IMG/VR virus record: IMGVR_UViG_3300030021_000018
Span: 1 to 23,498 of that record
DNA length: 23,498 bases
Direction: 5' to 3' (one strand)
Origin: a virus
Lineage: Duplodnaviria; Heunggongvirae; Uroviricota; Caudoviricetes
Shown here: piece by piece, positions 3,417-16,302 of the stretch
Numbering within the stretch: the stretch's first letter is position 1
Layout: each line of letters begins with the position of its first letter
The notes under the pieces: model-generated
Told to the model about the DNA's origin: nothing
Database searches by the model: none
What the model saw: the letters and a program-made list of their open reading frames with translations, nothing else
Program-made: the position numbers and the translations under genes

Positions 3417-3643
3417 TTTCTTTCCTCTGTTATGCCATCACCCGCGCTCACCTGGACAGTATGCAGCGGAGACTGAAGAGCCGCAATGCAGGCTTGTCGT
3501 GTTGTGAGGTAAGGAGATTTATTCTTAGTGGGATCTTTGCGTGTTGCCTGAAGACGCCCTGTGCGTATCCAGTTAATGGCAGTCGGTCTGGATATCTTGA
3601 GAAAATGACAGGCCTCATCTAGTGTGAGGCTGTATGGCTCCAT
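3293..3643 (-). CDS. xis: Excisionase / DNA-binding protein (Xis), overlapping the int start by about 120 nt
   Basis: ATG at 3643..3641 preceded by GAGGTG (gaGGTGaaataATG); product [37 protein letters not shown]... has an N-terminal HTH typical of Xis/AlpA-type proteins; it sits immediately upstream of int on the same strand. The upstream in-frame extension to 3727 is rejected because it lacks an RBS and overlaps the next gene. Confidence 0.7.
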
Positions 3644-3948
3644 TATTTCACCTCTTGTTGTGACATTGTTGAAAAATGGATACCTGCTCGTTGCTGCCAG
3701 ACGATCCAACCGAGAGTCATATCCCATGCCATGTATTCGTTATCGCCGTTTTTTGCTCTCCGACGATCTACTAAGTCACCGAAACGCTTTTCCATGAATA
3801 ATTCATAAGCTTCGCGTTCATCTGGTTCTACTTCCAGAGATAGGAGTGCGATTTCATAAGCACGGCGCTCAATATCGTCTCGCACGTCAAGGCTGCTGAT
3901 ACGCTCTTTAATTTCTTTAATCAGTTCTTTGTCGGTAAAAGTGGTCAT
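3643..3948 (-). CDS. Hypothetical early-left protein (101 aa, acidic)
   Basis: ATG at 3948..3946 with GGAG 5 nt upstream (ccGGAGgctggagcataATG); its stop overlaps the xis start (TAATG), giving a tight operon with xis and int. No family recognised. Confidence 0.6.
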   Translation of the reverse strand: MTTFTDKELIKEIKERISSLDVRDDIERRAYEIALLSLEVEPDEREAYELFMEKRFGDLVDRRRAKNGDNEYMAWDMTLGWIVWQQRAGIHFSTMSQQEVK

Positions 3949-4310
3949 TATGCTCCAGCCTCCGGTGCTTTTGGCATTACTGCCCAGTGAGTGATATTGA
4001 CGTTTTCAAGGTCCCCGACCTGAAATGTCCACTGCCATTCTCCGGTTTCTTTTTGTCCCCAGGTGTACCAGAGAGAACGCCAGCCAATTAGCCAGCCTTC
4101 TCCGTTAGCATCGAATAACAAAACACTTTCATTTGCTGGTGGCAGTTCAGTTGACACTGGTATTACTTTGTTTTCCTGTGCTGCACATTTAGCTTCAAGC
4201 GCATCGAATTTACGCACCAGGTATTCAGCATCTGTTTCATTCACTTTCAGATCTCGCGGTACACATCTCCCACGAAGAAACCCTTCCATTTCTAAAACAT
4301 TCATGCGCAT
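3948..4310 (-). CDS. Hypothetical early-left protein (120 aa, Trp-rich C-terminal region)
   Basis: ATG at 4310 with GGAG upstream; its stop overlaps the start of the next gene by 1 nt; C-terminal WxxW-rich segment (GWLIGWRSLWYTWGQKETGEWQWTF). No confident family assignment. Confidence 0.55.
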   Translation of the reverse strand: MRMNVLEMEGFLRGRCVPRDLKVNETDAEYLVRKFDALEAKCAAQENKVIPVSTELPPANESVLLFDANGEGWLIGWRSLWYTWGQKETGEWQWTFQVGDLENVNITHWAVMPKAPEAGA

Positions 4311-4837
4311 TTGCGTAACTCCGATAACTCGTTAAAACGTTCCATAAACATCCCGTAGGCATGGCCCGGTGCCTGTGGAATCACTTTGAACATCTCTGTT
4401 GCCGGGATACCTTCCAGTACAGGCCAGAAAGAGCCATCATCAAGCCCGAGATCGCGGCGTTCGGTTGCCAGCATAATGAGATCGGCATATTTCACTGGCG
4501 TGCTCATAACAGGAGGTAACCCGTATTTCTCACGTATTACGGCGTCTATTTTTTCTTCCATCCGTTTATAGTCAGGAAGAAGTCGTTTCAGTGGTGCGGG
4601 GATGTCCTGGCAATATGCTTCTGTTGCATCATGCATTAAAGCTTCAAAAGCAAATTCCTGTGGCACCAGCTGGCTGCAAAGCACCGCATGTTGGGCGACA
4701 CTGTAGAAGTGTGAAAGATGTCCTGCAAAGCGACAGATATTTGAAAGGGAAACCGCGATATCGTTAATAACGATGTCGTCTTTATTTATCCTGTCATAAT
4801 AAAAATGCTTCCCGGAAAAAGTTTTAATAAATGACAT
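4301..4837 (-). CDS. HD-domain phosphohydrolase (YfbR-like 5'-deoxynucleotidase family candidate)
   Basis: ATG at 4837 with GGAG RBS (cgtGGAGaacaaaATG); the product contains H...HD metal-binding signatures (LSHFYSVAQHAV...LMHDATEAY). The GTG at 4864 offered by the ORF track lacks an RBS. Confidence 0.7.
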   Translation of the reverse strand: MSFIKTFSGKHFYYDRINKDDIVINDIAVSLSNICRFAGHLSHFYSVAQHAVLCSQLVPQEFAFEALMHDATEAYCQDIPAPLKRLLPDYKRMEEKIDAVIREKYGLPPVMSTPVKYADLIMLATERRDLGLDDGSFWPVLEGIPATEMFKVIPQAPGHAYGMFMERFNELSELRKCA

Positions 4838-4864
4838 TTTGTTCTCCACGTATATGCGCTGCAC

Positions 4865-5381
4865 CGCGCTGAATTCGGGTAAAAGGAAGCCCTCACCGTC
4901 CGGCGATTATTGAGTCATTTACATTTCCATAAATGCCCCCGTAGGGGCGGTTAGTTTCTCCACAAAACAGAGAAGAACACCTGCGGTGGCAGCCGCCCGG
5001 ATGGATTGGGTTATGAGCCCGTCGTCCGGTGATGCTCTTCTCTGTTTTGTAAAAAGGACGGTACCAGCCGGAAGCAAGGGTACAAGCTGGTACCGCCAAG
5101 ACTACACACAGCATAAAGTTGTGGTGCCGGGTGCCTCCCGGTGCCTGGCGAAGGTTGCACACCAGGCGGGTGGGTATCCACAGAAGGTCGACTGTCAGCC
5201 TCAACCTTAACCCGCGTGCGCTGAGCCGCATTCACCACAACGCTAAGGATTCTCTCTGGTTGAAAATACTTAGCTGTTATGTGCCTGCTTTTAGCCACAT
5301 CAGGCGAGGTGGACCTAGTTATTCCCCAACAACAAGGATTCGGTTAATCTGGTTATCCCCAACAACGCAAAAGGAAAAGAA
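4865..5381. other. About 0.5 kb GC-rich non-coding region with nested inverted repeats (candidate structured RNA and/or divergent promoter region)
   Basis: No ORF with a plausible RBS; track ORFs here overlap one another in several frames. Perfect 15-bp inverted repeat 4962-4976 / 5036-5050 (acaaaacagagaaga / tcttctctgttttgt); 10-bp stem 5059-5068 / 5086-5095; long-range 9-bp pairing 5118-5126 / 5233-5241; several GC-only hairpins (4945-4958, 5127-5141, 5143-5167). Confidence 0.5.
5318..5366 (+). repeat. Two direct copies of GTTAT(T)CCCCAACAAC about 34 bp apart, just upstream of the 5382 start codon
   Basis: gttattccccaacaac at 5318-5333 and gttatccccaacaac at 5352-5366. The second copy contains TTATCCCCA, one mismatch from the DnaA-box consensus TTATCCACA. 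Confidence 0.6.
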
Positions 5382-5816
5382 ATGTCCGGTAATATCTATA
5401 CGCTGTACAAATCCCACTGTGAAAATGTTGGAAAGTATCGGGGCATTGAAATCAGTGGGGTAGTGTCATCAGTCGAAATAAGCAAAGTTGAATCAAGGGC
5501 AACATTACTTACTCTTTTGGACCTTGTCTTACATGAGCACCGGAAGAAATTCGGCACTCCCTATAATCAGTTGAATGGGAAAAAGGCTCTGGTTCACCTT
5601 ATTCTGATGAAGCATCACTGGATGCCAAAACAGATTAATGAGATGAAATTTGATGAACTTCTTCTTTCAATTCAGGATGAACTCACACTTGATAAAATAA
5701 GCGTAACCGCCCAGAAATTTTTAGATTATCGAGACTGGAGATCACAAATTCATCACTTTGATGATTTTGACGAAAATGAATGGGATCCTAATTTGTCTGC
5801 ACAATATCTAAAGTAA
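5382..5816 (+). CDS. Orphan hypothetical protein (144 aa) in an AT-rich segment
   Basis: ATG at 5382 preceded by AAGGAAAAGAA; a 435-nt open frame in visibly AT-rich DNA, where long ORFs are unlikely by chance; no homolog recognised. Confidence 0.65.
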   Translation: MSGNIYTLYKSHCENVGKYRGIEISGVVSSVEISKVESRATLLTLLDLVLHEHRKKFGTPYNQLNGKKALVHLILMKHHWMPKQINEMKFDELLLSIQDELTLDKISVTAQKFLDYRDWRSQIHHFDDFDENEWDPNLSAQYLK

Positions 5817-5994
5817 CATCCTGTGATAAAACCGTGATTTCCTGATCCAGTTTTTTTAAGGAGTCTATTGTTTCCTGTCGATAAGACAGCACTTCACGAA
5901 GCTGGTTTATAGCTGCCAGCTTCTTTGTCATCCACTCATAAATTTCCTCATCTGTGTAGCCAGGCGCGACGATTTTGGGTTCTGTTTTGTGCAT
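5788..5994 (-). CDS. Small hypothetical protein (68 aa, predicted coiled coil) at the position where an N-like gene would sit
   Basis: ATG at 5994..5992 with GAGGAG 8 nt upstream (ttGAGGAGatgtgaaATG); the ORF-track TTG start at 6009 is rejected. Its 3' end overlaps the 3' end of the 5382..5816 gene by 29 bp (convergent). No arginine-rich N-type motif. Confidence 0.5.
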   Translation of the reverse strand: MHKTEPKIVAPGYTDEEIYEWMTKKLAAINQLREVLSYRQETIDSLKKLDQEITVLSQDVTLDIVQTN

Positions 5995-6052
5995 TTCACA
6001 TCTCCTCAAGTTATCAGTTACTTGTTGATGGGGACCAGATTGTTAAAGAGCT

Positions 6053-6078
6053 AAGCGTCCTGTAGGGCGCTTTTTTGT
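6053..6078 (+). terminator. Candidate intrinsic terminator (plus strand)
   Basis: aagcgtcc-tgta-gggcgctt stem-loop followed by ttttttg (6071-6077); orientation is right for stopping rightward transcription before it runs antisense into cI. Confidence 0.5.
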
Positions 6079-6241
6079 TGCTAACGAATCATCCTGGACT
6101 TCATATGCCCCAGGCGGCTACTTCGTGGGCGTCCTGCCTGTTCGTTATCTTTGATATAAAATCTAACTTAACTTAGTTATTATGGCAAGAGAAAACACCA
6201 AACTTTTCTTAGTTCGGTGCCTTAGTTAGAGAAGAGAGGTC

Positions 6242-6868
6242 TTAGAGTTCGTATTGAACTCCTTTGACTACACCAATGATAAGGCAATTACCATTGATAG
6301 GGATGTTGGGATACCGAGGATTTAATGGCACTAAAAACTTTTGAGGGCCATCGATGACTAATTTTTTTACTGTAGCTTCGTTTGTTCCATCAAGTCGAGC
6401 GATGACTATTTTTCCATGACGAGGTTCTGCATCTGGATCTACAATCACTGTTGCGCCTTCTGGTATTGTTGGGAGGCCATTAGGGTTAGTCATGGAGTCA
6501 CCTTTAACCTCTAATGCAAATGAGTTATCACCAATCTTTAATGATGTATCTACCCACTTGTCCACTTCACTAAACACTTCTGCTGCCCTGCACTCAGTAA
6601 ACTGCCCAGCCTGAACCCACGATATTACAGGAACTCTGCGCATGTTTGTGACGAGTTTGCCTTCAAACTCAGCACCATAAAGAATGTAATCTATTGACGT
6701 ATTGAAGAACTTCGCTAATTTCGAAAGTGCCTCCCCACCAGGGGTATTGATGTCTTTCTCCCAGTACCCCACAGCAACGTCGCTTACTCCACAAAATTTA
6801 CCCAATTCTTTCTGGGACGTTCCGGTAACTCTTCTCAGAGCTTTTATACGCTGACCAACCGTTTCCAT
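6242..6868 (-). CDS. cI: CI/C2-type phage repressor (HTH plus S24 LexA-like autopeptidase domain)
   Basis: 208 aa; N-terminal HTH (QKELGKFCGVSDVAVGYWEKD), C-terminal S24 signature with GDSM and downstream Lys (EATVKKLV); divergent from a Cro-like gene across a 97-bp operator region. Confidence 0.9.
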   Translation of the reverse strand: METVGQRIKALRRVTGTSQKELGKFCGVSDVAVGYWEKDINTPGGEALSKLAKFFNTSIDYILYGAEFEGKLVTNMRRVPVISWVQAGQFTECRAAEVFSEVDKWVDTSLKIGDNSFALEVKGDSMTNPNGLPTIPEGATVIVDPDAEPRHGKIVIARLDGTNEATVKKLVIDGPQKFLVPLNPRYPNIPINGNCLIIGVVKGVQYEL

Positions 6869-6965
6869 AGGAGCACCATTTCTTGAATTGCTAAGTAATC
6901 TTAGTTTTTATTGACCAAAGATAGATTTGTAATTAGCATCTAATAAAACTTAGTTTGGAGGGCGT
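6869..6965. promoter_or_regulatory. Immunity operator/promoter region (OR with divergent PRM/PR candidates)
   Basis: Palindromes ctaagtaatcttag (6891-6904) and attagcatctaat (6932-6944) sharing CTAAG/CTTAG-type half-sites; TTGACC (6911-6916) with a weak -10 candidate TAGCAT 17 bp downstream, oriented toward cro; GGAGGG RBS before the cro ATG. Confidence 0.6.
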
Positions 6966-7166
6966 ATGACAACTGACGATATCGAAAGCTACTTCGGCAG
7001 TATTGAGAAAGTTGCTGCTTTTTTCGGCATAACAACTGAAGCCGTTTATCAGTGGCGAAACCGTCCGGGCCAGTTAATTCCAAAAGGACGTGCAGCAGAA
7101 GCTGCATATAGAACTTGCGGACGGTTGCCATTTAAACCTGAGCTTTATGAAAAATCTAATGGATAA
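6966..7166 (+). CDS. cro: Cro-like HTH regulator
   Basis: 66-aa ORF divergent from cI, with a GGAGGG RBS; small size, basic C-terminus and position are as expected for Cro. Confidence 0.8.
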   Translation: MTTDDIESYFGSIEKVAAFFGITTEAVYQWRNRPGQLIPKGRAAEAAYRTCGRLPFKPELYEKSNG

Positions 7167-11724: not shown

Positions 11725-12720
11725 GTGACCGTGAGAGCACTACTGACCCCTGAAATTGCCCCGCGTATGGGGATTGTATTGTTCAGGCCAGGTTCAGAGC
11801 TGATGCCCCTGTTTATGCAGGGGCGTGTCCTGCTGGAGCCTGAGCCGGAACGTTATTCATCTTTCGCCAGTGGTGCCGTTCCGGCGGCATCACAACCGCT
11901 GGCGGATGATCCTGCCGTTCGGGCCGTGTTCCGCAATGAGGCAGTGATCCGTCGTGCTGGTGGCGTGGAATGTCTTGAAAGCTGGTTACTTCGTGAAAAG
12001 GGCTGTCAGTGGCCTCATTCCGACTGGCACAGCGAGAACATGACCACAATGCGGCACGCTCCGGGAGCAATTCGTCTGTGCTGGCACTGCGATAACCAGC
12101 TGCGTGACCAGTTCACGGAACGGCTGGAATCAATGGCAACGGATAACTGTGCCCGCTGGGTGTTGTCTGTTGTGCGTCGGGATCTCGGTTTTGATGATAG
12201 TCACGTTGTGACAATGCCGGAACTGTGCTGGTGGCTGATTCGTAATGACCTGGCGGATGCCTTACCGGAAAGTGCAGCCCGTAAGGCACTGAGATTACCA
12301 AAGCCTATTGTGCCGTCTGTCACCCGGGAAAGTGACCTTGTGCCTTCGGTTCCTGCCACCAGCATCATCCAGGATAAGGCGAAAAAGGTGCTGGCGCTGA
12401 AAGTGGATCCGGAGTCGCCGGAGTCTTTTATGTTACGCCCAAAACGTCGCCGCTGGGTTAATGAAAAGTACACGCGCTGGGTTAAGACACAGCCGTGTGC
12501 ATGTTGTGGAAAGCCCGCTGATGATCCCCACCACCTGATAGGTTACGGTCAGGGTGGAATGGGAACAAAAGCGCATGACCTTTTTGTGTTGCCTTTGTGC
12601 AGAAAGCATCACGACGAGCTGCATGCGGATACCGTGGCATTTGAAGAAAAGTATGGCTCCCAGCTGGAGCTGATATTTCGTTTTATCGATCGCGCGCTGG
12701 CAATTGGCGTGCTGGCCTGA
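11725..12720 (+). CDS. DUF968-family protein with a C-terminal HNH-like Cys/His cluster; exact start uncertain (GTG 11725 or 11731)
   Basis: The C-terminal CACCGKPADDPHHLIGYGQGGMGTKAHDLFVLPLCRKHHDELH is the characteristic DUF968 motif found in lambdoid prophages (Qin ydfU-like). Confidence 0.7.
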   Translation: MTVRALLTPEIAPRMGIVLFRPGSELMPLFMQGRVLLEPEPERYSSFASGAVPAASQPLADDPAVRAVFRNEAVIRRAGGVECLESWLLREKGCQWPHSDWHSENMTTMRHAPGAIRLCWHCDNQLRDQFTERLESMATDNCARWVLSVVRRDLGFDDSHVVTMPELCWWLIRNDLADALPESAARKALRLPKPIVPSVTRESDLVPSVPATSIIQDKAKKVLALKVDPESPESFMLRPKRRRWVNEKYTRWVKTQPCACCGKPADDPHHLIGYGQGGMGTKAHDLFVLPLCRKHHDELHADTVAFEEKYGSQLELIFRFIDRALAIGVLA

Positions 12721-12738
12721 TTTTTTCGGAGAAAGGTG

Positions 12739-13104
12739 ATGCGTGATATTCAGATGGTTCTTGAGCGTTGGGGGGCATGGGCGGCGAGTGACAGTTCAGG
12801 AGTAGACTATTCGCCTATAGCTGCTGGGTTTAAGGGACTTCTTCCCTATACAAGCAAAACACGTCAGGCTTGTTCAGATAGTGATGCATTAATTATTGAA
12901 GGTTGTCTTGCTCGTCTAAAGCAAAAAAGGCCAGACGAACATTCGCTTCTTGTTGCCCATTACCTATACGGTATCTCTAAAAGAAAGCTCGCCAAAGCTC
13001 GTAAAAAGGATGAGAAACTAATACGCATTGAGATACAGATGGCTGAGGGGTTTATTGAAGGCTGTCTCTCAATGCTTGATCTTTGTTTGGAAATGGACCA
13101 ATAG
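12739..13104 (+). CDS. Late-gene antitermination protein Q (short QuuD-like type)
   Basis: About 121 aa, ATG with GGAGAAAGG RBS; the N-terminus MRDIQMVLERWGAWAASDSSGVDYSP matches my memory of short lambdoid Q antiterminators; it sits upstream of the lysis module. Confidence 0.75.
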   Translation: MRDIQMVLERWGAWAASDSSGVDYSPIAAGFKGLLPYTSKTRQACSDSDALIIEGCLARLKQKRPDEHSLLVAHYLYGISKRKLAKARKKDEKLIRIEIQMAEGFIEGCLSMLDLCLEMDQ

Positions 13105-13127
13105 ACTACAAGAATAGCAACTGCCGC

Positions 13128-13550
13128 TCAGCTTTGCGGATCGGCAGTTTCTGATGGTGTAATGTTACGCGCAGATGTTTCAAGTATAGATTCCCTTCCG
13201 ATTGATACCAAAATTTCGATTGTTCTTGCTTTAGCCTGCATCAATGTTGATTTTATTTCAGGACTTAAGTGGTCAGATCGTAACTGCTTCTCAATCTCAG
13301 CCAAATCACGCTTGCATTTTGCTCTTTTGGCTGCGTCTTCTGGAGATTCGAAACCATGTCTCGAAATGAACCAATTCATGACGTAAGTTAAAGTTGCCGC
13401 AACACCCGGTACTAATGCGTAGGCTACAGTTCGCCACACGCTATTAGGGTCGGTTAAAATCGCGCTAACAAGAACACTTAAAATTGCTCCCCAACCACCA
13501 GTTGAAAGGGTAGCTTTTCCTGTGCTTAGACCTTTAGTTTGAGAATTCAT
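13128..13550 (-). CDS. Small predicted membrane protein (140 aa, two hydrophobic helices then a charged helical tail); last gene of the opposite-strand cassette
   Basis: ATG at 13550 overlapping the upstream stop (ATGA); hydrophobic segments GGWGAILSVLVSAILT and VAYALVPGVAATLTYVMNWFI; AT-rich codon usage unlike the flanking phage genes. Confidence 0.7.
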   Translation of the reverse strand: MNSQTKGLSTGKATLSTGGWGAILSVLVSAILTDPNSVWRTVAYALVPGVAATLTYVMNWFISRHGFESPEDAAKRAKCKRDLAEIEKQLRSDHLSPEIKSTLMQAKARTIEILVSIGRESILETSARNITPSETADPQS

Positions 13551-13816
13551 TTTCGTTTTGAATTCTCCGCAATTGCCTCATCAATGAGGGTTGTTAGCAT
13601 TTTTCCCTTTTTACTTGGAACTTTTATTACTAGCGTTTTGGTCACTCCGGAATCTTCATCGTGATATCGGAATTCGAAGACTTTTGTAGGGAATAGTCGA
13701 CGCCAAAGCAAGGCTGACGCTGAATAGCAAAAACGACTAAAGGCAGGGATGATCATTATCACCCCTATCCAGAAGATCAGTTGTGCTATCTGCATGTTTA
13801 GTGTCACTTTTGTCAA
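13547..13816 (-). CDS. Small predicted membrane protein (up to 89 aa; start may be the internal ATG at 13795)
   Basis: Hydrophobic N-terminal helix IAQLIFWIGVIMIIPAF followed by a basic soluble tail; the frame is linked to its neighbours by 4-nt overlaps. Confidence 0.6.
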   Translation of the reverse strand: MTKVTLNMQIAQLIFWIGVIMIIPAFSRFCYSASALLWRRLFPTKVFEFRYHDEDSGVTKTLVIKVPSKKGKMLTTLIDEAIAENSKRK

Positions 13817-14682
13817 GCCTCAGCAGGGCGTTTTCGTTTTACTTTGGTTATAGCATACTTGGTTGTGGCATTTCGCGCAGTGAAAGTTTTTATAGTTTTT
13901 AGCTCAACAACAAACAAATCTTCTTTTGTAAAACTGATGATTCCGTTTTGAACTTGGTGTATAAACAACTGATCTTCAAAGGTAACAGCATGCTCTTCGC
14001 CTAAATAATCGATTCTCCAACCCTTTGTACCCTCGAAGTTGATCTGTACGAATCTAACATTGACTTCTTCTACAGACTCTTCTTTTTCAAGTAGTGTGCC
14101 TCTAGGCAGCGGTTTGATCTCTTCGGTTTCACTTCCTTCAAGACGAACGACTTCTTCGCCTTCATCATTCAGCACCTTAAATACTGCTCCTTGTTTGCCG
14201 TCTAATGGTGCACGAACTACATTCACAAGGGCATCACGGACTTCTGGATCTGTTACTAACTTAGCCACTGAGTCATGGCAAACAATTTCTTCCCCTTCAA
14301 GCTCAAGAACAGATTCTTCTGTTCCTGCCCGTTTTGTTACCGAAATTACTTTCTTGCTGCCCAGTTGGCGGATTAGTGATAATGCTGGAGCTCCAATAGT
14401 AGCCCCGGCTATCCCTGTTAGGCCAATCACTTTTGCTACGTCGACGGCATGAGGAACAAGCTCCATCATCGTATAGGATACGCCGAGTGATCCCGCTTCA
14501 GCTGGATTAGTAACCATTAACTTAACGGTTTGTTGGCCGTCATTAAGTCTTTTATCAGCTGCTGATATTAAATCTGCCATCGAACCTATGGAAATGCTTA
14601 ATGTTTTGGCATCAATTTTATGCTGTGCTAATTCATTATCCTCTGCATCGTAGAAGATCTGAAAAGAAGTTGTTTTAGTCAC
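13813..14682 (-). CDS. Hypothetical acidic soluble protein (up to 289 aa; start codon uncertain, GTG at 14682 or ATG at 14580); first gene of the opposite-strand cassette
   Basis: Long open frame in AT-rich DNA; acidic, Glu/Val-rich C-terminal half; no family recognised. Confidence 0.7.
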   Translation of the reverse strand: MTKTTSFQIFYDAEDNELAQHKIDAKTLSISIGSMADLISAADKRLNDGQQTVKLMVTNPAEAGSLGVSYTMMELVPHAVDVAKVIGLTGIAGATIGAPALSLIRQLGSKKVISVTKRAGTEESVLELEGEEIVCHDSVAKLVTDPEVRDALVNVVRAPLDGKQGAVFKVLNDEGEEVVRLEGSETEEIKPLPRGTLLEKEESVEEVNVRFVQINFEGTKGWRIDYLGEEHAVTFEDQLFIHQVQNGIISFTKEDLFVVELKTIKTFTARNATTKYAITKVKRKRPAEA

Positions 14683-14804
14683 TCTTTGCTCGCTATGTCT
14701 TGATTTTTTTCCACAAAATACCTTTTTTTGGTGTAAAAAACATTATCGCGGTCCGCAAAAATTGCGTTACTGTGTTAAGAGTGATTACTTCGTCACACAG
14801 CTTA

Positions 14805-14830
14805 AACCCGCCGTCGAGCGGGTTTTTTTA
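14805..14830 (+). terminator. Intrinsic terminator candidate (possible tR'-like element of the late promoter region)
   Basis: acccgc-cgtcga-gcgggt stem-loop followed by ttttttta; plus-strand orientation, about 120 bp upstream of the next plus-strand gene. Confidence 0.55.
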
Positions 14831-14952
14831 TACCTGTAAACCTGGTGCAGTACGGTAAACACGCTGGTGGTCGTGAATACTGACTTTTTATCTTGCTGGC
14901 TTTTTAGACAAGAGTTATTGGTATGTCATGTTAACCATGAAGGTAAAAAGAC

Positions 14953-15222
14953 ATGCTAAAACAGCAAGATATGACAGAAACGGCGAAAGTTGTTTTTAAT
15001 GAATTAAACGGCAAACCGGCAACAGTCGGGGAGATAGCACAAAACACATACCTTTCACGCGAACGCTGTCAGTTAATACTGACCCAGCTGGTTATGGCGG
15101 GGCTGGCAGATTATGTGAAAATGGGCGGCTGGTGGGTGTTGGTAGCACCTGCCAGCCATTCGCTCATGCTTACTGGTCACAAGCGAACCATGGCCCACTG
15201 CTTTAGCGCAAAAGCAGAGTGA
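14953..15222 (+). CDS. Small hypothetical protein (89 aa), possibly a winged-helix DNA-binding protein
   Basis: ATG with AAGG RBS (aAGGtaaaaagacATG); lies directly upstream of the second methyltransferase gene. Confidence 0.5.
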   Translation: MLKQQDMTETAKVVFNELNGKPATVGEIAQNTYLSRERCQLILTQLVMAGLADYVKMGGWWVLVAPASHSLMLTGHKRTMAHCFSAKAE

Positions 15223-15249
15223 GCCTACCAGAGTTACGCTTACTGATCC

Positions 15250-16302
15250 ATGAAAAATACTGTAAAAATAAACAGTGTTGATTTAATCAACGCTGATTGC
15301 CTGCATTTTATTCAGTCCCTGCCTGATGACTCCATTGATCTGATTGTTACCGATCCGCCGTACTTCAAAGTGAAGCCCAACGGCTGGGACAATCAGTGGA
15401 AAGGGGACGAAGATTACCTGAAGTGGCTGGACCACTGTCTGGCCCAGTTCTGGCGGGTACTGAAACCAGCCGGAAGCCTTTACCTGTTCTGTGGACATCG
15501 CCTGGCATCTGATATCGAGATCATGATGCGTGAACGTTTCAACGTTCTTAACCATATCATCTGGGCGAAGCCGTCCGGACGATGGAACGGGTGTAATAAA
15601 GAAAGCCTGCGGGCATATTTCCCCGCTACAGAGCGCGTTCTGTTTGCTGAACATTACCAGGGGCCATATCGCGGCAAAAGTGACGATTATGCGGCAAAAG
15701 AAAGGGAACTCAAACAGCACATAATGGCACCGCTGATTTCGTATTTCAGGGATGCTCGTGCCGAACTGGGTATAACGGCAAAACAGATTGCCGAAGCCAC
15801 TGGTAAGAAAAATATGGTTTCCCACTGGTTTGGTGCCAGTCAGTGGCAGTTGCCGAATGAGGCTGACTACCGGAAGTTGCAGGCACTGTTTTCCCGTATA
15901 GCGGCAGATAAATTTCAGGAACAACAACTGGAACAACCACACCACCAGCTGGTGGCATCTTATGATTCACTGAATCGCAAATATTCTGAATTGCTGGATG
16001 AGTTTAAAACTCTCCGGCGCTATTTCTCCGTATCAGTTTCCGTGCCTTATACCGACGTCTGGACGCATAAACCCGTTCAGTTCTACCCGGGTAAACATCC
16101 GTGTGAGAAGCCTGCGGATATGCTCCGGCAAATAATCAGTGCCAGTAGTCGACAAGGCGATCTGGTTGCTGATTTCTTTATGGGATCCGGTTCCACAATA
16201 AAAGCGGCAATGGCGCTGGGGCGTCGGGCGTTAGGTGTTGAACTTGAGTCAGAGCGGTTTAATCAGACGGTGAAAGAGGTAAGTGAACTGGTGGGGAAAT
16301 AA
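15250..16302 (+). CDS. DNA methyltransferase, N6-adenine/N4-cytosine amino-MTase (beta-class motif order)
   Basis: Catalytic DPPY motif near the N-terminus (IVTDPPYF) and an AdoMet-binding FxGxG motif near the C-terminus (DFFMGSGST); about 350 aa; no adjacent restriction endonuclease gene. Confidence 0.85.
   Translation: MKNTVKINSVDLINADCLHFIQSLPDDSIDLIVTDPPYFKVKPNGWDNQWKGDEDYLKWLDHCLAQFWRVLKPAGSLYLFCGHRLASDIEIMMRERFNVLNHIIWAKPSGRWNGCNKESLRAYFPATERVLFAEHYQGPYRGKSDDYAAKERELKQHIMAPLISYFRDARAELGITAKQIAEATGKKNMVSHWFGASQWQLPNEADYRKLQALFSRIAADKFQEQQLEQPHHQLVASYDSLNRKYSELLDEFKTLRRYFSVSVSVPYTDVWTHKPVQFYPGKHPCEKPADMLRQIISASSRQGDLVADFFMGSGSTIKAAMALGRRALGVELESERFNQTVKEVSELVGK

Follow-up and report, generated by a model that had tools for sequence, protein, structure and literature searches.

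The 23,498-nt stretch of IMG/VR record IMGVR_UViG_3300030021_000018 analysed here (hereafter the window, to which all coordinates refer unless another record is named) is a lambdoid Escherichia coli prophage that carries, between the gene for antiterminator Q and the late genes, a cassette of three minus-strand genes, here called A, B and C. The three open reading frames (ORFs) predicted for this cassette, at 13813-14682, 13547-13816 and 13128-13550, respectively, were borne out. I propose that the cassette is probably an anti-phage module, expressed in the lysogen and acting by abortive infection or exclusion, and that it represents a proteobacterial variant, with three genes, of the gp29/gp30 system of mycobacteriophage MichelleMyBell; this predicted defence role is supported by comparative evidence and homology. 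The original prediction, made from the sequence alone, had spoken of an undescribed defence or exclusion system. Its functional part gains from the homology of A to gp29 and to the PADLOC candidate PDC-S42, and from distant family members lying beside cI-type repressors and integrases. The word undescribed holds only for a part of the cassette: the core family is already catalogued and one of its members belongs to a published system, whereas its combination with the membrane partners B and C into a set of three genes, and the occurrence of that set in Proteobacteria, are new.

A three-gene operon with a gp29-like core

Gene A (13813..14682, minus strand, GTG start) encodes a cytoplasmic, acidic protein of 289 amino acids (aa) with an isoelectric point of 5.1 and no signal peptide, and its N-terminus is aligned with those of its homologues. 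The initial remark that none of the three products matches anything recognisable stands for B and C, which belong to no known family, but not for A, which matches the PADLOC model for PDC-S42 (PDLC05015, E 8.2e-33, residues 4-287), the NCBIfam model NF053583, named 'LAPAL motif-containing putative phage structural protein' (202 bits against a curated cutoff of 60), and phrog_3243 (3e-60). No Pfam family, PF25678 (DUF7946) included, matches A at E<=1. Among 60 diverse relatives of A, all 60 match PDC-S42 and 17 match DUF7946 (best E 2e-8), and as A itself gives no direct match, its link with DUF7946 is indirect.

The comparison with MichelleMyBell (MMB) was made because of a label in GenBank, where the A homologue of Vibrio phage 10N.286.45.F8_PE001 (L241, Vinavirales) is called 'MMB_gp29_gp30__gp29', a DefenseFinder model name set by the depositors. 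A profile of 60 A-family members aligns with gp29 (310 aa) over 273 columns with an hhalign probability of 98.75% (E 1.5e-16), A from the window finds the C-terminal 80 aa of gp29 by BLASTP (28% identity, E 1e-8), and gp29 itself matches the PDC-S42 model (1.6e-16). As gp29 and A match the same PADLOC model and are aligned by hhalign, PDC-S42, LAPAL_fam and gp29 represent one family, and A is shown to be a full-length homologue of gp29. The conserved positions of A are Y11, D12, H21, D24, G64, S65, G87, R149, P159, W222, D237 and F240, the last three of which, invariant in the family, lie inside the conserved C-terminal block aligned with gp29. A conserved glycine-rich hydrophobic segment at residues ~80-108 (Kyte-Doolittle maximum over 19 residues, KD19, 1.64) is modelled with a low predicted local distance difference test score (pLDDT); the AlphaFold2 (AF2) model of A has an overall pLDDT of 83.5 and no fold match in the Protein Data Bank (PDB). 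Foldseek against BFVD pointed to a DUF6575 protein (E 2.6e-8), but at a TM-score of only 0.33 and without a match of A to DUF6575 in Pfam or PADLOC this is kept as a lead only; Vassallo et al. 2022 name DUF6575 as a domain of one of the systems that they validated.

An exhaustive profile search collected 1,820 clusters (50% identity) at E<=1e-3, and nearly all of the best 150 of these are full-length proteins of ~290-310 aa. PDC-S42 was independently put forward as an untested single-gene candidate on the basis of guilt-by-embedding inside BREX, DISARM and type I restriction-modification loci (Payne et al., bioRxiv 10.1101/2024.01.29.577857). The matches to PDLC05015 place A and its 60 relatives in the same protein family, but PDC-S42 is defined as a single gene, whereas B and C, for which PADLOC has no model, follow A in 73 out of 73 loci. 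A literature search found no paper on PDC-S42, the 'LAPAL motif', DUF7946 or the RefSeq accessions, and no connection between PDC-S42 and gp29 was found in the literature searched. The literal motif is absent from A in the window, which reads 'TLSISIGS' where distant members read 'DLAPALLA'.

The distant subfamily with the literal 'DLAPALLA' occurs in Lactobacillus phage A2, a Listeria phage, Bifidobacterium prophages and a Vibrio PM2-like element, and its gene is solo, with no B-like or C-like ORFs downstream. In 124 non-redundant distant loci the commonest neighbour by far is a co-oriented gene immediately upstream, at a distance of 60-170 nt, which is of the repressor type; going upstream, it comes first in at least 29 loci and second in 10. 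A Pfam scan of 39 upstream neighbours, which include those of the three-gene loci L071-L073, L005 and L064, found HTH_3 in 33, Peptidase_S24 in 25 and Phage_CI_repr in 7; a cI/LexA-type repressor lies directly upstream of, and co-oriented with, the trio in L071-L073 as well. The family gene lies between endolysin and integrase in phage A2, and in an integrase/regulator module, beside a 'putative superinfection immunity protein', in the Listeria phage. In the Vibrio phage mentioned above (positions 3480-5084 of its record) the A homologue is accompanied by an 83-aa B-like and a 161-aa C-like ORF and adjoins the integrase gene. The similarity of these two ORFs to B and C is not significant (best for B, E 0.004, probability 8.7%). 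With an A homologue, a B-like and a C-like ORF in a non-tailed PM2-like element, the trio would move between unrelated virus realms.

A, B and C are one conserved, tightly packed operon under purifying selection. By tblastn and ORF analysis, A is followed by B and then by C, overlapping or nearly abutting, in 72 of 72 other loci from IMG/VR prophages and genomes (73 counting the window), with identities of A from 100% down to 27% and with Pseudomonas, Xenorhabdus and Providencia among the hosts. Where orthologues with 70-92% identity in A were compared, the proportion of nonsynonymous differences (pN) was far below that of synonymous differences (pS) in all three genes, and the corresponding rate ratio (dN/dS) was 0.02-0.27 for the trio where computable, and 0.02-0.06 for A against its orthologues; none of the three is therefore a chance ORF. 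The elements that carry the trio are temperate and lambdoid, P2-like or PM2-like, and in P2-like prophages of Pseudomonas it is located between a helix-turn-helix (HTH) regulator and genes that, by eye, resemble gpD-like/tape measure genes at the end of the tail module. In the Providencia stuartii locus L007 (5962-6847 of that record), A is split by an apparent frameshift into ORFs of 183 and 128 aa while B and C are intact, and this copy may be decaying.

The membrane features first read from the sequence, one N-terminal hydrophobic helix in B and two helices plus a charged tail in C, were confirmed, as was the acidity of A. The stated length of B was not. Gene B (13547..13807, minus strand) reaches 89 aa if TTG at 13816 is used, but the start common to the close clades among the 72 related loci is the GTG at 13807, which results in a protein of ~86 aa and a gap of 5 nt after the stop codon of A. 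Hence, of the two 4-nt overlaps predicted within the operon, the ATGA shared by B and C (13547-13550) was confirmed and is present in most of the 72 other loci too, whereas the overlap of A and B depends on the TTG start at 13816. B consists of an N-terminal transmembrane (TM) helix with an invariant proline, the motif 'LLWRRLFP', also found across the related loci, and a basic domain. It is conserved after A and is under purifying selection (pN 0.08 vs. pS 0.56 in the comparison with locus L016), and it has no match in Pfam, PADLOC, PHROGs or NCBIfam. The RefSeq annotation pipeline PGAP leaves B uncalled in every E. coli record seen, for example at 12851-13112 of NZ_CM151364 (L001), which corresponds to window 13547-13816.

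Gene C (13128..13550, minus strand), conserved in the related loci, encodes a 140-aa protein with a hairpin of two membrane helices (about residues 18-31 and 38-65, with a proline in the second) and a helical, charged tail with 13 K/R and 13 D/E. Motifs shared across the related loci are 'GGxGA', the proline in the second helix, 'RHGLExPE' and 'RDL..I.KQL', and the homologues of C are all named 'hypothetical' and have no Pfam domain. The AF2 model of C is all-helical and of low confidence (pLDDT 58), and it was therefore used for helix boundaries only. The charge distribution of C fits an N-in/C-in topology, and the positive-inside rule would place the 55-residue basic domain of B and both ends of C in the cytoplasm.

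The insertion site in sister phages

Comparison with related prophages, proposed at the outset as a check for an insertion or deletion at this position, indicates that the cassette is absent from PhiR5_1 and replaced in cdtI and phiP27. In the cassette-less PhiR5_1 the end of a related Q gene is joined directly to the sequence found at window 14733. Phage cdtI shares both its Q and the genes downstream with the window, but by blastn the homology stops at 13097 and resumes at 14735. From the breakpoints in the two phages the whole inserted block was placed at 13105..14732, its low G+C content being further evidence for cargo, and its description as a mobile insertion of 1.6 kb, located between the stop codon of Q and the late promoter/terminator region, is well supported. 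The Q gene that forms the left flank (12736..13104, plus strand, Pfam Phage_antitermQ 3.3e-53) is convergent with C, both here and in every enterobacterial locus examined. The cassette is outside the late transcription unit and is oriented against both the early and the late operons.

The cargo at this point differs between sister phages. In cdtI the slot (L002 3425-4813, corresponding to window 13098-14734) contains a reverse-strand pair, orf54 and orf53. The product of orf54 has 313 aa and matches Pfam DUF6731 (1.7e-10), and that of orf53 has 147 aa and about four TM helices, so that a soluble protein is paired with a membrane protein as in the cassette, in an architecture that resembles RexA/RexB. 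Neither has a PADLOC match, and no sequence relation was found that would make them homologues of A and C. In phiP27 the slot (L238 1978-3207) is filled by L22, a plus-strand gene for a protein of 409 aa annotated as 'GIY-YIG nuclease family protein', the C-terminal half of which matches the PADLOC model of PD-Lambda-1 (2e-89), a validated defence system in Vassallo et al. 2022 (PMC9519451). Both cargoes share the insertion point of the cassette at the Q/late-promoter junction, but their sequences are unrelated to A, B and C. With a relative of PD-Lambda-1 as the cargo of phiP27, the site behaves as an exchangeable defence slot. The suggestion that the cassette is a horizontally acquired accessory module at a moron site is well supported by the comparisons to PhiR5_1, cdtI and phiP27.

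In E. coli the distribution of the cassette is patchy and its occurrence rare: the region 12700-15300 was found at 99.7% identity in prophages of 31 out of 5,426 complete genomes, and a variant of the cassette, ~68% identical, in a further 12. Two of the 44 matching places are in plasmid records, and one of these (H84, NZ_CP174001.1, 43 kb), which carries the ~68% variant, is possibly a phage-plasmid.

Function of the cassette and alternative explanations

The gp29/gp30 system of MichelleMyBell was reportedly described by Dedrick et al. in 2017. The MichelleMyBell prophage lowers the plating efficiency of phage Tweety by 4-5 orders of magnitude, and variants in the repeats of Tweety gp54 escape this defence (Hatfull, PMC8549241); Montgomery et al. 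(PMC6426606) describe the behaviour of the system as that of a typical abortive infection. According to one secondary source, gp29 is toxic and gp30 is a putative membrane protein (PMC11856565); gp30 is a 67-aa hairpin of two TM helices whose gene overlaps the 3' end of gene 29. The MichelleMyBell system and the cassette have in common that the gene for a soluble protein precedes, in tight coupling, one for a small membrane protein, and that they are carried by prophages as cargo, apart from the modules for structure and replication. C and gp30 are alike in architecture only, each with a two-TM hairpin and a proline in the second helix. The two systems differ in that the cassette has three genes instead of two, B being an extra bitopic protein, in that gp30 is a bare hairpin whereas C has an additional helical tail of ~75 aa, in their host phyla, Proteobacteria versus Actinobacteria, and in their position, the Q/late-promoter junction versus the interval between lysis genes and integrase.

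A similar architecture, a prophage-encoded soluble protein of ~280-290 aa together with one or more small inner-membrane proteins, is known from RexA/RexB and from Sbash gp30/gp31, for both of which membrane depolarisation has been proposed as the mechanism (PMC6426596). The position of family members behind a cI repressor gene is, moreover, that of rexAB in lambda. Homology of the cassette with RexA/RexB was looked for and not found: A does not show the RexA-like DUF4747 fold, BLASTP of C against RexB gives nothing, and C and B have two and one TM helices, respectively, versus four in RexB.

In the mechanism that I propose, A would be the cytoplasmic core and a sensor for a component of an infecting heterotypic phage. 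As relatives of A are solo and would work without partners, the core activity probably resides in A, which is then probably intrinsically toxic. The bitopic B and the N-in/C-in hairpin C could hold A at the inner membrane, restrain it or execute its signal, with the glycine-rich segment of A as a candidate contact for their cytoplasmic parts. Heterotypic infection would activate A, upon which B and C would collapse the integrity or the energy of the membrane and no phage would be made, an abortive outcome modelled on RexAB and Sbash gp30/31. It may be speculated that convergent early transcription through Q silences the cassette on prophage induction.

A wider interpretation is more tentative, and I consider it possible rather than probable. 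The gp29/PDC-S42/LAPAL superfamily, with ~1,800 clusters in Proteobacteria, Firmicutes and Actinobacteria, could be a very widespread repressor-linked prophage defence and a counterpart of Rex. The trio would then be its membrane-coupled version, in which two inner-membrane proteins turn the activation of a sensor into membrane failure, and which would move as a unit across lambdoid, P2-like and PM2-like elements. In any case, the comparisons unify three database labels, namely the PADLOC candidate, the 'putative structural protein' of NCBI and the Pfam domain of unknown function (DUF), and link them to a defence system with experimental support, which DefenseFinder had detected in Actinobacteria only. 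They add two unannotated membrane partners, one of them uncalled by RefSeq, they mark the Q/late-promoter junction of this Q type as a slot for exchangeable defence genes, and they provide an E. coli-tractable member with which the mechanism of the gp29 family could be dissected by means of coliphage panels and genetics.

Several observations weigh against the proposed defence function. The assignment of the MichelleMyBell defence to genes 29 and 30 rests on the name of the DefenseFinder model and on secondary sources. The conserved residues of A contain no known catalytic motif, and A has no solved structural relative. The hhalign probability of a relation with gp30 is 0.1% for the B family and 1.8% for the C family, a comparison in which short TM proteins perform poorly and in which analogy and extreme divergence are indistinguishable. 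With no relation of B or C to gp30 or RexB detected, what the model says about the membrane follows from architecture alone. A generic promoter scan, which gave no more hits than in shuffled sequence, had none upstream of A, where it thus identified no confident sigma-70 promoter. The trio of the distant loci L006 and L075 has the same orientation as the lysis genes and immediately precedes them, and in some Mu-like phages the solo gene lies inside the block of head genes.

Of the alternatives, superinfection exclusion fares best, although I consider it rather unlikely. A, B and C would then block the injection or transit of DNA, like P22 SieA, T4 Imm or Charlie gp32, and the cell would survive. 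Two of the three products are small inner-membrane proteins, the cassette occupies accessory positions of prophages, and the Listeria homologue adjoins the gene annotated as a superinfection immunity protein, all of which would be expected of such a system. However, the characterised relative resembles abortive infection, with adsorption and injection proceeding (PMC6426606), and most family members are solo, cytoplasmic and without a membrane partner, and therefore fit poorly with a block at entry.

Slightly less probable still is a toxin-antitoxin-like module for addiction or maintenance of the prophage, or one that modulates the physiology of the host, which would serve mainly to stabilise the prophage rather than to ward off other phages. 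The reported toxicity of gp29 alone (PMC11856565), the organisation with tightly coupled small partners and the rare, patchy occurrence in E. coli given above could be understood in this way. Yet a 289-aa protein with two membrane partners matches no toxin-antitoxin family in Pfam, NCBIfam or PADLOC, and the sister cargo in phiP27 is a relative of a defence gene; besides, toxin-antitoxin and abortive-infection roles are compatible with each other.

It is improbable that the cassette is a lysis-associated set, with C as a class II-like holin or antiholin, B as its regulator and A as an accessory to lysis timing. C is small and does have the two TM helices and the charged C-terminus of class II holins, the cassette adjoins the lysis region in the window, and the genes next to the trio in L006 and L075 are those for endolysin and holin. 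However, the cassette is opposed to the late operon, and situated upstream of the late promoter/terminator, both here and in all enterobacterial loci. In this phage the position and orientation are wrong for a holin, and its lysis region already provides one, along with a lysozyme and a third gene. Elsewhere the trio is found beside repressors and integrases, far from lysis genes, and sister phages exist without the cassette.

Least credible of all is a role of A in virion structure or morphogenesis, as the name of NF053583 in NCBIfam would have it. In its favour are the score of A against that model and the solo gene that some Mu-like prophages carry between the portal gene and a head-region ORF (414 aa, F-like by eye) on one side and a putative protease/scaffold gene on the other. 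Against it are a tblastn search of 50,697 deposited phage genomes that found no match to A, sister phages with the same Q and late genes but without A, the orientation of A, which is opposed to late transcription, the presence of relatives in a PM2-like element that has no tail and in modules for lysogeny, and the homology with the defence protein gp29. The Mu-like G/I interval is, moreover, a hotspot of accessory genes such as anti-CRISPRs. This location may be the source of the NCBI name, and the RefSeq product name 'structural' is probably misleading.

Flanking DNA and base composition

To the right of the cassette, the block 14733..14832 (plus strand in its late-promoter reading) contains the palindrome GCGGTCCGC, TGTTAAGAGTG and, as found by a terminator scan, an intrinsic terminator at 14804-14825 followed by a T run. 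PhiR5_1, cdtI and phiP27 all have this conserved block, regardless of what is inserted next to it, and by analogy with lambda it is probably the Q-dependent late promoter with a short terminated leader RNA (pR'/tR') for this type of Q.

The segment 14683..14732 is the last inserted DNA before homology resumes, at 14733 in PhiR5_1 and at 14735 in cdtI, and would be the cassette-specific 5' leader and the probable promoter region on the minus strand, with a candidate -10-like TATTTT at 14720-14715. This hexamer, TA(A/T/G)(A/T)TT in general, is found in 21 diverse loci, always at the same distance from the palindrome, which amounts to +37 from TGCGGACCGC on the cassette strand. It is often preceded by TG, the spacer differs between loci, and the same bases read on the plus strand resemble, in many loci, a -35 element, TTTACA. 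The hexamer may thus serve the cassette, the late promoter or both. An Rfam scan of 12600-15400 gave nothing above noise, and a possible connection to a paper on the small RNA svsR led nowhere.

The G+C content of the cassette, 41.9%, is below the 50.6% of the window, and a value this low occurs in just 3.7% of windows of its size. It had been described as visibly AT-rich compared with its neighbours on both sides, which is correct with respect to the window and to the DUF968 (55%) and methylase (49%) genes. Q, however, has a G+C content of only 44.2%, so that the contrast on that side is weak. The lowest G+C of the window (0.39-0.42), below that of the cassette, is found at 5251-7000, in the repressor/immunity region of the prophage.

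Upstream of the methylase gene, the plus-strand ORF at 14953-15222 encodes 89 aa in the window, while RefSeq gives it as 64 aa and the phiP27 annotation as a TrmB-like regulator. Inside this ORF, at window ~15110-15113, ~45 extra bases are present in the closest E. coli prophages.

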